Part shown: one piece after another, positions 45,698-47,094 of the stretch
Position numbering within the stretch: position 1 is the first letter of the stretch
Layout of the letters: each line of letters starts with the position of its first letter
Source: Patescibacteria group bacterium
GTDB lineage: Bacteria > Patescibacteriota > Doudnabacteria > UBA920 > VMFF01
DNA length: 64,000 bases
Assembly: GCA_038065615.1 (NCBI GenBank)
Contig: JBBTQQ010000001.1
Coordinates: forward strand, 76,207-140,206
Direction: 5' to 3'
Notes under the pieces: generated by a model
Seen by the model: the letters and a program-made list of their open reading frames with translations, nothing else
What the model was told of the DNA's origin: nothing
Databases searched by the model: none
Position numbers and translations under genes: made by a program

Positions 45698-46705
45698 TTA
45701 CTGTATTAAATGGTTAAGCCAAAAATTATTTAACAGCTTTTCTTTTATCTTTTGAGTATTCCCGTGTTTCAACAAACCCAGATAGGATTCTAAAGCTTCT
45801 ATTTTTGGTACATCTATTATTCTCTTAAGCATTCGCCTCTTAGTGGTATTGCGTAGCGTCTTATACTTCGGAAAGTGCACCCAACCAAGAAAATCTACTC
45901 CAGATGCGAAAGACTTAATATATATTTTGTTTGGATGCAGTGACAACTTCAGCTTCTCGGTCAGAAACTCCTGCACCCTCGGTATCTGCTGCTCCAGCCA
46001 CCGTTTATCTTCCGACAAGAAAACAAAATCATCCGCATACCTAATATAGTTCTTAGCTTTCAACTTGTGTTTGACAAACTGATCAAGTTCGTTCAAATAT
46101 ACATTGCAGAATAGCTGCGAGGTTAAATTGCCTAGTGGTAATCCCCTACCCTGTGTATAAATTGAAAAGCTATCAATAACGTTCCGCAATAACCATAAAA
46201 CTTCCGAATCTGGAATATTGCGCTGCAAAATCTCTATTAAGACTTTGTGGTCAATGCTTGCAAAAAACTTCTTAATATCGCACTTCAGCACCCAACAGCT
46301 CTGGGTATTATTTTTACTGACCCGGTTAGCCATCGTCTGAAACCTGTCCATAGCCTTATGTGTCCCTTTGGCGATCCGACAAGAAAAGGAGTCAGCAATG
46401 AATAGGTCGTCGTACGCTGGGTAGAACAAACGATAGATCGCATGGTGCAACACCCTATCCCGAACCGAAGCCTTATGAATCTGTCTCGGCTTAGGATCAG
46501 AAATTGCAAAATTATAATAGTTGCCGTGCTTATATGACCGGTTGGCAAGGTCTTCGTGAAGCTGTATTATATTATCAATCAAATGTAGCCTAAAGTCTTG
46601 AACGTCATGCTTTTGAGATTTACCCAAAGCAAACTCGCGCCACGCAGCAAGCAGGTTTTCTATACTAATAACATCTGAATAACTATGAACGAATTGCCTT
46701 TGCAT
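45698..46705 (-). CDS. diversity-generating retroelement reverse transcriptase
   Basis: RT motifs appear in order: ASVRDRVLHHA (motif 2), SFSCRIAKGTHKA (motif 3), KCDIKKFFASIDH (motif 4), the DGR-specific LPLGNLTSQ ([LIV]GxxxSQ), and RYADDFVF (YADD). The likely start is MQRQFVHS... at 46705. The caller's longer ORF (to 46753) would read through a G9 tract. Confidence 0.9.
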   Translation of the reverse strand: MQRQFVHSYSDVISIENLLAAWREFALGKSQKHDVQDFRLHLIDNIIQLHEDLANRSYKHGNYYNFAISDPKPRQIHKASVRDRVLHHAIYRLFYPAYDDLFIADSFSCRIAKGTHKAMDRFQTMANRVSKNNTQSCWVLKCDIKKFFASIDHKVLIEILQRNIPDSEVLWLLRNVIDSFSIYTQGRGLPLGNLTSQLFCNVYLNELDQFVKHKLKAKNYIRYADDFVFLSEDKRWLEQQIPRVQEFLTEKLKLSLHPNKIYIKSFASGVDFLGWVHFPKYKTLRNTTKRRMLKRIIDVPKIEALESYLGLLKHGNTQKIKEKLLNNFWLNHLIQ

Positions 46706-46719
46706 AAAAATTCTACTAA

Positions 46720-47094
46720 AACGACCCCCCCCCAACGGCTTCGGACTTACCAATCTTACAAAAAATTACAGCAGCCTACAAACTTTGGCATGGACTGCTG
46801 CCACAAATTCCAAGACTTGCCCGTTACTCCTTGGGTGAAAAAATAAACTTACTTTTCATCGAACTAATTGAACTGACTTTAATTGCAACATATTCTACCA
46901 AAGATCGTAAAGGCGAAATCGTACAAAGAGCATCAGTTAAACTGGATATGCTCAAATACTTTCTGCAAATAGCTTGGGAATTAAAAGCAATTGATAATAA
47001 AAAGTACGCCTTGCTTAGTGAACCGCTTTCAGAAGCTGGACGGATGATGGGCGGCTGGAGAAAACAGCTGCAAAAAGAAACTCCGCCTAGTTAG
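46720..47094 (+). CDS. avd: DGR accessory variability determinant (Avd-like four-helix-bundle protein); start codon unresolved
   Basis: The open frame from 46720 encodes ...ILQKITAAYKLWHGLLPQIPRLARYSLGEKINLLFIELIELTLIA...MLKYFLQIAWELKAI...SEAGRMMGGWRK, matching the Avd/IVS-protein pattern (PKxxxY-L, ML+F-L, E-GR-LG-W). The first in-frame ATG is missing; TTG is at 46831 and CTG at 46795. The upstream ATG at 46685 is in the +1 frame. Confidence 0.65.
   Translation, partial: NDPPPTASDLPILQKITAAYKLWHGLLPQIPRLARYSLGEKINLLFIELIELTLIATYSTKDRKGEIVQRASVKLDMLKYFLQIAWELKAIDNKKYALLSEPLSEAGRMMGGWRKQLQKETPPS
46725..46733. repeat. C9/G9 homopolymer tract at the overlapping divergent 5' ends of avd and RT
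   Basis: Direct count of 9 consecutive C on the plus strand. One extra C would fuse ATG 46685 in frame with the Avd ORF. Confidence 0.7.

Follow-up and report, generated by a model that had tools for sequence, protein, structure and literature searches.

The locus described here raises the question of whether the length of a single homopolymer decides if a diversity-generating retroelement (DGR) can make its accessory protein, Avd. The stretch of DNA analysed, referred to throughout as the window, is 64,000 nt from a member of the Patescibacteria. An earlier sequence-only reading of it had proposed that a run of nine cytidines both fixes the start of Avd and sets how far the 5' end of the reverse transcriptase (RT) extends, and had offered a slipped-strand switch or a sequencing error as the explanation. 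To our knowledge no general control mechanism has been described for DGRs, and unrestrained mutagenic retrohoming should be costly. The CPR bacteria are, according to the literature, the lineage in which DGRs are most abundant.

The DGR cassette

The features of the cassette outside the avd/RT junction are as follows.

47584..48291, minus strand: DGR target gene; the longest ORF is 235 aa (206 aa in other assemblies)
47588..47721, minus strand: variable repeat (VR), at the 3' end of the target gene
47496..47525, no strand assigned: 14-bp inverted repeat some 60 nt downstream of the VR, where the hairpin after the IMH sits in DGRs
47112..47245, minus strand: template repeat (TR), 134 nt
47080..47101, minus strand: terminator-like hairpin directly after the TR, overlapping the avd stop codon; from a consensus scan only
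45698..46705, minus strand: DGR reverse transcriptase, 335 aa, starting at the Met at 46705

The RT scored 87 bits against Pfam RVT_1. It carries LGNLTSQ at residue 191, which is the DGR-type [LIV]GxxxSQ motif, and YADD at residue 223 (YxDD); the motif QGxxxSP is absent from its sequence. The TR and VR differ at 20 positions, all of them TR adenines (15 A>G, 3 A>C and 2 A>T), and the VR encodes the C-terminus of the target, ie the last 45 or so residues of the 235-aa ORF. By its RT motifs, by the restriction of TR/VR differences to adenine and by the location of the VR within a coding target, the locus is a DGR. The target gene has no match in Pfam. The hairpin after the TR suggests that a separate short TR transcript is made.

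The inverted orientation of avd had been taken as atypical. It is in fact the norm in CPR, since avd and RT are divergent in about 72 of 80 genome loci and in 63 of 69 metagenome loci, and the order seen in the window (target-VR, TR, inverted avd, RT) is common to about 90% of related loci.

The avd/RT junction

The features at the junction are listed below.

46685..46705, no strand assigned: antiparallel overlap of the avd and RT start codons (ATG-N15-CAT), 21 nt, read directly
46685..46724, plus strand: Avd leader from ATG to tract (MNELPLHKNSTKT...), out of frame with the Avd core at C9
46725..46733, plus strand (G9 on the RT strand): poly-C tract, C9, a hypermutable simple-sequence repeat, read directly
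46685..46846, plus strand: 53-aa ORF opened by the ATG at C9, crossing the tract in the wrong frame
46720..47094, plus strand: Avd reading frame, with the core from LPILQK (46747) and the stop TAG at 47092-47094
46831..47094, plus strand: truncated Avd of 87 aa with a TTG start, the gene-finder call at C9 (P0013)

Direct reading places the RT Met at 46705, after the tract on the minus strand, where it had been proposed, and this ATG has kept its position (offset 0 or at most 1 codon) in some two thirds of the loci listed. The avd and RT starts overlap in one codon register, such that the CAT of Avd His7 is the RT ATG. This ATG...CAT layout was found in 35 of 72 analysed loci, 31 of which bear the tract. 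The overlap had been described as spanning the tract. With the conserved RT Met at 46705 it comprises only 46685-46705, and the tract lies outside it. A longer RT ORF, opened by a TTG at 46753 on the minus strand, reads ...PLGGGRFSRIFMQRQ... through the tract, and the Gly-Gly-Gly noted there had been read correctly. However, a start beyond the tract is present in only 26 of 64 loci. The long ORF was dropped as a candidate for the real RT, its 5' extension being a by-product of ORF calling, and of the two roles given to the tract length only the setting of the Avd start was upheld.

The tract occupies 46725-46733, as had been stated, beginning 40 nt past the ATG at 46685 in the 5' part of the avd ORF, and the slippery heptamer C CCC CCC can be read within it. 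There is no other G/C run of at least 7 nt in the 64-kb window (38% GC). In related loci totalling 406 kb, G/C runs of at least 8 nt number 63 at the avd/RT junction and 5 elsewhere; the occurrence of the tract is far above chance.

The Avd frame opens at 46720, after a TAA at 46717-46719, and at C9 it contains no ATG, GTG or TTG ahead of the TTG at 46831; a CTG is present at 46795. All of this agrees with the earlier account, in which the frame had neither ATG nor GTG before helix 1. The ATG at 46685 is one base out of the Avd frame and reads MNELPLHKNSTKTTPPQRL... to a stop at 46846, giving a 53-aa ORF that is probably a non-functional by-product. One additional C joins the two frames, again as had been claimed, and changing the length in silico gave products of 136 aa as against 87 or 53 aa. 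A complete Avd ORF with a start codon is thus lacking in the C9 genome and present in the C10 allele. The 87-aa form is without the entire helix 1 and the start of helix 2, taking the helix limits from the AF2 model.

Avd scored 58.2 bits against Pfam bAvd (PF22296, gathering cutoff 40) and 71.8 bits against the NCBIfam equivalog NF033474, which is under the cutoff of 80, so membership of the Avd family is assigned at the Pfam level only. Position 1 of the NF033474 profile falls at LPILQK. A profile search of PDB sequences gave no match for Avd, and its identification therefore needed a fold search. The AF2 model (pLDDT 85.8) has helices at residues 23-41, 44-70, 73-99 and 105-131. Its best Foldseek match was Bordetella Avd (4dwl_D, TM 0.88, rmsd 1.7), followed by the Avd chains of DGR RNP cryo-EM entries, which bears out the four-helix protein of the sequence-only reading. 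The leader is disordered in the model, with pLDDT <50 for residues 1-17, suggesting that changes in the number of prolines would be tolerated. Full-length homologues share a leader of the form M-x-(Q/E/K)-L-(P/N)-(F/L)-H...PPP...LP(I/V)LQK, and homologous avd genes do start at an ATG equivalent to that at 46685. The predicted junction peptide of Avd across the tract is TTPPPTASDLPILQK; a locked version of the tract in the avd leader is CCACCTCCG.

Length alleles within species

The alleles compared are those of consensus assemblies, and heterogeneity within one population is judged from assemblies that differ. Over 6.4 kb, two assemblies (L083 and L084) are identical to the window (0 mismatches) save for a single additional C, ie they are C10; L085 and L086, otherwise identical too, are likewise C10. 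An independent sample of the window's organism (L001) is C9. A further C9 contig (L002) is 100% identical to the window over 6.2 kb; it is probably the same contig and was not counted as independent. The product of the C10 allele (P0121, 136 aa) is exactly the predicted fused Avd, which supports the claim that it depends on the tract length whether the frame of the ATG at 46685 continues into Avd. It falls into one 90% cluster with the 87-aa form.

The tract length is polymorphic within species. Of the Veblenbacteria contigs 2 have C8, 11 have C9 and 2 have C10, the last being the only in-frame length; among those of Falkowbacteria 16 have C7 and 10 have C8, of which C8 is the in-frame length. 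Both sets of alleles occur on identical flanks. A single identical 449-nt flank haplotype bears both C7 and C8, and C10 arose on two different haplotypes. Such recurrence is suggestive of high-frequency, reversible switching.

The VR is identical in every C9 and C10 assembly of the window's organism, and this comparison is therefore uninformative on the relation between tract state and diversification. In Veblenbacteria the VR varies between strains, mostly at TR-A positions, yet all of these contigs are C9; the activity belongs to past ON episodes, or an in-frame tract is not needed. Contig breakage at the VR (ON versus OFF) was dropped as a proxy of activity, as the retrieved contigs are biased towards long ones.

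Survey of related loci

In 64 genome and 55 metagenome loci, or 119 related Patescibacteria DGR loci, the Avd core is preceded at a distance of 14-34 nt by a C-run of at least 7 nt, with lengths from C7 to C14 and one of C30. The tract is a clade-wide feature and not a peculiarity of one genome. At the same site the C-run is replaced by (GA)n in L024 and L066 (proteins P0004 and P0076) and by (CA)n in L162 and L176, which argues for selection on the mutability of the repeat, and not on prolines or a G-rich RNA motif. Judging by its conserved position, its uninterrupted sequence and its frequency above background, the repeat appears to be kept by selection.

Of the 119 loci, 38 have the tract in frame with the upstream ATG, ie the one third expected by chance (p = 0.77). 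Repeat-free loci are in frame in 18 of 22 cases (Fisher p = 2e-5 versus tract loci), indicating that the ATG-initiated protein is the functional product where there is no switch. Frame offsets were 15:24:24 and 18:13:24, and +1-type versus -1-type offsets 24:24 and 13:24; no conserved direction of shift, as for programmed frameshifting or slippage, was found among these loci. Between the tract and core codon +4 there is no ATG, GTG or TTG in 43 of the 119 loci, 9 of them in frame and 34, the window included, out of frame. The Avd frame is stop-free from tract to core in all 64 of 64 loci. At the first Avd core codon TTG accounts for 30 of 62 Leu codons, compared to 17% elsewhere (the window has TTA), which suggests an internal bypass start in some lineages, not in the window. 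An internal TTG start was rejected as a general explanation, being absent in the window and in the 43 loci just mentioned.

Possible function of the tract

We lean, with modest confidence, towards the view that the conserved hypermutable repeat in the disordered avd leader is a slipped-strand ON/OFF switch, or a throttle, for the DGR. Avd would be translated from the ATG at 46685, which overlaps the divergent RT start codon, and translation would run through the short disordered leader with its repeat into the four-helix bundle. Slipped-strand mispairing at replication would alter the run by single bases. At C10 the ATG would read into the full-length 136-aa Avd (ON). At C9, as in the window, it would lead into the 53-aa dead-end frame with no canonical start before helix 1 (OFF), and such alleles would lack a functional Avd. 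In the Bordetella model the RT requires Avd for cDNA synthesis, so the tract would be a stochastic, heritable gate on the adenine-directed hypermutation of the target. Switching of this kind would be reversible and frequent, with cells mostly OFF and occasionally flipping to ON, and DGR activity would come under its control. An effect of the tract on the expression of Avd is what the sequence comparisons point to, and from its position a short way upstream of the divergent RT start the tract might also co-regulate that gene. Recent activity of DGR clade 2 of the Patescibacteria is reported to be lower than average (Roux et al. 2021, PMC8144416), which would fit a switch that is mostly OFF. An in-frame share of exactly one third is equally expected if the tract is untranslated, and counts against the switch. 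Whether most CPR DGRs carry a contingency repeat (poly-C, sometimes GA or CA) in the avd leader, as a second-order evolvability switch for hypermutation, we regard as evenly balanced.

Slippage on the RNA or at the ribosome would make the genomic length irrelevant. Stuttering of RNA polymerase, or a +1/-1 shift of tRNA-Pro on CCC, would provide a constitutive throttle, every allele giving a small in-frame fraction of Avd, and this could coexist with variation in the DNA. We consider it unlikely, though a serious contender. The frame offsets are uniform, with no genomic length disfavoured; the RT is apparently intact in the 34 out-of-frame loci without an internal start; the Veblenbacteria VRs are diversified even though all those contigs are C9; and the heptamer is a perfect slippery one, tRNA-Pro being prone to +1 shifts at CCC-N. 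However, shifts of either sign would have to occur with equal frequency, while the direction is fixed at the known programmed frameshift sites, and inspection of the window revealed no evident stimulatory structure downstream beside the tract. Transcriptional slippage is best documented on runs of A or T, and polymorphism of the DNA itself is demonstrated; the substitution of (GA)n or (CA)n for the C-run is more easily reconciled with slippage of the DNA than with that of ribosomes on proline codons. Quite unlikely, in our view, is a function on the RT side or in a control region shared by the divergent genes, for which the poly-G or poly-C promoter tracts of Neisseria and Bordetella are the model. 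The G-run, 8-30 nt upstream of the RT ATG and thus within the promoter spacer or 5' leader of RT, would by its length tune transcription of RT and perhaps of avd, while Avd would come from an internal start and its frame relation to the upstream ATG would be incidental. The chance-level in-frame fraction agrees with this, as does the enrichment of TTG or GTG at the first Avd core codon of tract loci relative to repeat-free ones, but a canonical internal start is lacking in the 43 loci that include the window, the upstream ATG stays in frame in most repeat-free loci, and the Avd frame is uninterrupted from tract to core. On the RT strand a T directly follows the tract in 42 of 64 loci and a T is found at +5 in 39 of 64, and a subgroup with G(n)-TAGAAT-N7-ATG has the geometry of a leaderless promoter. 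Set against these, the A at +1 of the putative -10 occurs in only 25 of 64, there is no conserved -35-like element upstream of the tract, and a consensus scan of the window gave no promoter spanning it; where (GA)n stands in for poly-C, moreover, the RT strand has (TC)n and not a run of purines. The search for a sigma-70-like promoter whose spacer holds the G-run yielded only a weak TANNNT beside the tract in a subset of loci and no conserved -35, and this reading was retained as a minor rival.

It is scarcely credible that the true length is always in frame and that C9 is a homopolymer miscall. Such runs are error-prone, and C9 and C10 assemblies came from the same aquifer, but C9 was obtained from a 71x contig as well as from an independent sample, and the short, accurately sequenced C7 and C8 are equally polymorphic, as seen in dozens of contigs obtained in different studies and with different assemblers. 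If errors scattered around a true in-frame length, most of the 119 loci, and not one third, should be in frame. Repeat-free loci are without such frame scatter, and the lengths in the repeat-free cluster P0021 are almost uniform at 131-132 aa, with one member of 170. Of the two explanations first offered, the slipped-strand switch is accordingly favoured and simple sequencing error rejected, the C10 allele having been found in other samples. Decay, by which avd would be a pseudogene in this genome and the tract a neutral mutational hotspot, we hold to be very improbable. A neutral run would gain substitutions, and unbroken runs of C8-C11 are found across species in which Avd is only 40-75% identical. 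The identity of the VR across samples of the window's organism, and an RT that is split or deleted in some Falkowbacteria C7 contigs, are in keeping with decay; against it, the RT, TR, VR and the rest of avd are intact in the window, the TR/VR differences are A-only, and the in-frame allele coexists in nature.

If the phase-variable switch is real, CPR would possess a simple mechanism in which a hypermutable repeat gates an essential accessory protein. Phase variation and targeted hypermutation, two classic evolvability strategies, would be joined in one locus, one mutational switch controlling another, ie a mutable tract over a targeted mutator. This would account for the lower activity that CPR DGRs seem to have in population surveys, and would be the first phase-variable system described in ultra-small episymbionts. 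Gene callers systematically cut short or overlook avd in about two thirds of these loci and shift the RT start call, and these miscalls affect DGR annotation and surveys of 'activity'.

Comparison with known systems

The DGR of Bordetella phage BPP-1 (mtd-avd-TR-brt) is the prototype diversity-generating retroelement. The locus in the window resembles it in its RT with [LIV]GxxxSQ and YxDD, in differences confined to TR adenines, in a VR at the target C-terminus and in the four-helix bundle of Avd (4dwl, TM 0.88). Unlike in BPP-1, avd is inverted and lies between TR and RT, its start overlaps the RT start in antiparallel, and Avd has an N-terminal leader with a hypervariable repeat. BPP-1 Avd is not known to have either such a leader or such a repeat.

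According to Wu et al. 2018 (PMC5758913), 90% of CPR DGRs have the variant cassette architecture B3, and the B subtypes differ in how avd and TR are ordered and oriented. The window agrees with the CPR DGRs of that paper and of PMC8144416 in host group, in chromosomal location and in having a target without a recognisable domain. A full-text search of the literature that included PMC5758913 and PMC8144416, with Paul et al. 2017 outside it, gave no mention of a homopolymer or repeat in avd, a frame-shifted avd or overlapping starts. No prior description of the avd tract was found.

Programmed frameshifting and transcriptional slippage occur at homopolymers in dnaX, in IS elements and in the poly(A) rescue of endosymbionts. 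As there, a slippery homopolymer lies in an ORF and the functional product would need slippage in most genomes; unlike there, the shift is not fixed in direction, a stimulatory element is not evident, the run consists of C/G and not A/T, and its genomic length is polymorphic. Repeats are also known in divergent promoters, such as the (TA)n of hifA/hifB in H. influenzae and the poly-G promoter spacer of porA in N. meningitidis. The tract shares with these a position between two divergent genes, both of which it could affect, but it is inside the avd ORF and has no conserved flanking -35/-10 pair.

Simple-sequence contingency loci include poly-G/C tracts in Campylobacter, Neisseria and Bordetella pertussis and the poly-C of mga in group A Streptococcus (PMC8355987, PMC5084427, PMC1891110, PMC10330708). 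The avd tract differs from them in that the gated gene encodes an accessory factor of targeted hypermutation and not a surface or restriction-modification function, and in that the hosts are environmental ultra-small bacteria and not host-adapted pathogens. As in these loci, an ORF has a G/C homopolymer of 7-14 nt close to its 5' end, one-base alleles among near-identical genomes toggle the frame, other repeat types occur at the same site, and the repeat is conserved across lineages.

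The element and the avd/RT junction

The element in the window is a bona fide diversity-generating retroelement (DGR), with the following parts.

45698-46705, minus strand: reverse transcriptase (RT), RVT_1 match, motifs LGNLTSQ and YADD
47112-47245, minus strand: template repeat (TR), 134-nt repeat
47588-47721, minus strand: variable repeat (VR), 134-nt repeat

TR and VR differ at 20 positions, 20/20 of them TR adenines. The VR encodes the C-terminus of a 235-aa target ORF, for which a Pfam search gave no match, and the Avd frame on the plus strand matches Pfam bAvd with 58.2 bits (cutoff 40). 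The source is a Patescibacteria metagenome-assembled genome from Hainich groundwater, and the neighbouring genes (PNPase, S15, a tyrosine recombinase and a pseudouridine synthase) indicate a chromosomal locus. The recombinase gene, XerC/D-like (48410-49402, plus strand), directly adjoins the target gene in divergent orientation, an arrangement common to all assemblies of this organism. On the minus strand a terminator-like GC hairpin and then a T-run lie at 47080-47101, 10 nt past the TR end and overlapping the avd stop codon, and a promoter-like site is found upstream of the TR (47358-47329). TR RNA may be transcribed on its own as a short molecule, in which case a promoter within the antisense avd would be required for the RT. 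About 60 nt downstream of the VR there is a 14-bp inverted repeat (47496-47525, 93% complementary, 2-nt loop), the same position as that of the hairpin which follows the IMH in characterised DGRs.

A sequence-only reading had proposed that a homopolymer at the avd/RT junction was either a slipped-strand switch or a sequencing error, and direct reading of the sequence bore out all its coordinates. The tract is C9 at 46725-46733, and is the only G/C run of at least 7 nt in the 64-kb window (38% GC). An ATG at 46685 opens the frame MNELPLHKNSTKTTPPQRL, which stops at 46846. The Avd-like frame, preceded by TAA at 46717-46719, is open from 46720 and has no ATG, GTG or TTG before TTG 46831 (there is a CTG at 46795); one additional C fuses the two frames. 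Initiation at TTG 46831, the next canonical start, would remove helix 1 entirely, along with the beginning of helix 2. On the minus strand a long ORF from TTG 46753 contains PLGGGRFSRIFMQRQFVH, with a Met at 46705. The Avd and RT ATGs form an antiparallel 21-nt overlap in the same codon register, ATGCAAAGGCAATTCGTTCAT being the reverse complement of ATGAACGAATTGCCTTTGCAT. This ATG-N15-CAT start overlap (46685-46705) was present in 35/72 analysed loci, and a subgroup has back-to-back CATATG instead.

The AlphaFold model of the C10-fused Avd has a pLDDT of 85.8, with leader residues 1-17 below 50. Its best match among solved structures is Bordetella Avd (4dwl, TM 0.88, rmsd 1.7 A), followed by Avd chains in cryo-EM entries of DGR RNPs.

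Length alleles of the tract

The hypothetical C10-fused Avd was used as the query in a homologue search. Many homologues of 131-145 aa cover 99-100% of it and have in common the leader M-x-(Q/E/K)-L-(P/N)-(F/L)-H...(T/S)PPP(Q)...(D/N)LP(I/V)LQK. The 90%-identity cluster of the window's Avd contains an 87-aa TTG form (P0013) and a 136-aa protein, P0121, identical in sequence to the predicted fusion and encoded on six contigs. Over 6.4 kb, contigs L083 (Hain_H41_02um_R1, 325,600 bp, 14x) and L084 have zero mismatches to the window and differ from it only by a single added C; L085 and L086 come from other runs and likewise have C10. C9 is supported by the 71x contig L002 from the same well, which is probably the window itself, and by L001 from an independent low-coverage sample. 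Homopolymer length is thus the sole polymorphism between these assemblies; both alleles exist, and C9 is not a sequencing error. At 5941-5989 (window ~46766) L001 carries a 49-nt insertion within avd, about 39 nt of unrelated sequence plus N10, which is probably a scaffolding artefact and marks an assembly break within the gene.

Two further loci were polymorphic. In Veblenbacteria the tract is C8 in 2 contigs, C9 in 11 and C10 in 2, with near-identical flanks, and only C10 gives full-length Avd (143/146 aa). In Falkowbacteria it is C7 in 16 contigs and C8 in 10, the 150-aa Avd form coming from C8. A single 449-nt flank haplotype is found with both Falkowbacteria lengths; among the Veblenbacteria contigs, one haplotype is common to C8 and C9, and C10 lies on two different ones. 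Tract length therefore turns over recurrently and more quickly than point substitutions build up. Long and short forms occur together in tract-bearing protein clusters, and lengths in cluster P0021, which lacks the repeat, hardly vary (131-132 aa, apart from a single 170-aa member). Several Falkowbacteria contigs with the out-of-frame C7 (among L105-L108 and L122) have the RT split or largely deleted, and in one C7 contig an rve-family transposase gene adjoins the RT remnant; the DGR may be decaying in strains whose tract is short and possibly locked OFF.

Conservation and reading frame

A set of 80 species-level genome loci was found with an Avd alignment, and 69 metagenome loci served as independent replication. 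The sequence-only reading had called the divergent avd/RT layout atypical. It is instead the norm for the clade, with a divergent RT immediately upstream of avd in about 72/80 genome and 63/69 metagenome loci, which would agree with the 90% share reported for architecture B3 among Candidate Phyla Radiation (CPR) DGRs (PMC5758913). A C-run of 7-14 nt lies 14-34 nt upstream of the Avd core in 64/80 genome loci, and a run of at least 7 nt, mostly C8-C11, in 55/69 metagenome loci. Throughout 406 kb of loci, 63 G/C runs of at least 8 nt fall at the avd/RT junction and 5 elsewhere. At the exact tract position, genome loci L024 and L066 have (GA)n, proteins P0004 and P0076 also show this repeat, read as RERERE, and metagenome loci L162 and L176 have (CA)n. 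That the site accepts several repeat types favours mutability of the repeat as the selected property, over prolines or a G-rich motif (RNA or DNA) on one strand. One metagenome locus (L163) has C30 in the avd leader, and L048 has runs of G13, C32, C21 and C28 some 2.4 kb downstream from avd, at roughly +2340 to +2490 relative to the Avd core; these could be either extreme expansions or artefacts of assembly.

Reading frame of the Avd core relative to an upstream ATG. Offsets are those of the picked ATG.
Tract loci, genome: 17/64 in frame; offsets 15:24:24 (63 loci)
Tract loci, metagenome: 21/55 in frame; offsets 18:13:24
Tract loci, pooled: 38/119 (32%) in frame; equals 1/3, p=0.77
Repeat-free loci, pooled: 18/22 (82%) in frame; Fisher p=2e-5 vs tract loci

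Allowing any canonical upstream start raised the genome count to 22/64. Since the ATG-initiated ORF is intact where the repeat is absent, the leader-plus-bundle protein is the functional product. From tract to core the Avd frame is free of stops in 64/64 loci, and the other two frames are stopped in 3 and 11. The first core codon, the Leu of LP(I/V)LQK, is TTG in 30/62 Leu codons of tract loci vs 17% elsewhere in Avd (p=1e-8), and less commonly so in repeat-free loci; in some lineages it may thus be an internal bypass start. In the window this codon (46747-46749) is TTA. The window is among 43/119 tract loci with no ATG, GTG or TTG between the tract and core codon +4, of which only 9 are in frame. 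As judged from consensus DNA, the other 34 could not make complete Avd without some kind of slippage, even though the RT ORF appears to be intact in these loci.

The extended RT ORF that crosses the tract, also proposed earlier, is not conserved, the start lying beyond the tract in only 26/64 loci. Called RT lengths are 351 aa (L001) and 335 aa (L002) with C9, and 309 aa (L083, L084) and 294 aa (L085) with C10. These calls move with tract state only because gene callers avoid an antiparallel overlap with the longer avd ORF, and are a systematic annotation artefact in this DGR clade.

A proposed switch and its alternatives

The explanation with the best support places a slipped-strand contingency repeat in an avd leader that is disordered and tolerates length changes; C10 would be ON and C9, the state of the window, OFF. 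The data demonstrate the tract itself, its length polymorphism, its conservation and its effect on the reading frame; the loss of Avd in OFF alleles, the reversibility and rate of switching and the control of DGR activity are inferred. In the Bordetella system cDNA synthesis requires Avd together with RT, so gating Avd would gate mutagenic retrohoming. The switch would be mostly OFF, with occasional ON episodes. This fits the VRs of Veblenbacteria strains, which differ, mostly at TR-A positions, yet are all on C9 alleles, and the activity of the Patescibacteria-restricted DGR clade 2, which is significantly below average (Roux et al., PMC8144416).

Sequencing error is ruled out as the source of tract length by the C7/C8 polymorphism, the agreement of multiple studies and the 1/3 in-frame fraction. 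Neutral decay is likewise rejected, as the run is uninterrupted across species whose Avd proteins share only 40-75% identity. Slippage at the RNA level or on the ribosome is a more serious rival: some in-frame Avd would come from any allele, and the tract would be a throttle and not a switch. The uniform frame distribution and the VR differences among all-C9 Veblenbacteria strains fit this, but the fixed shift direction typical of known programmed sites is lacking and the GA and CA repeats are a poor fit. Such a throttle and DNA-level variation may coexist. Alternatively, the tract, which lies 8-30 nt ahead of the RT ATG, might act chiefly on the RT, as G(n)-TAGAAT-N7-ATG in a subgroup of loci would suggest; however, no -35 element is conserved and a promoter scan of the window gave no promoter spanning the tract.

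In the full-text literature searches and the DGR surveys and reviews covered, neither a repeat within avd nor a frame-shifted avd was mentioned, and overlapping avd/RT start codons and a phase-variable tract in Patescibacteria were likewise absent. Phase variation by simple-sequence repeats and DGRs are each well known; what would be new is their combination, with a targeted hypermutator under the control of a contingency repeat.
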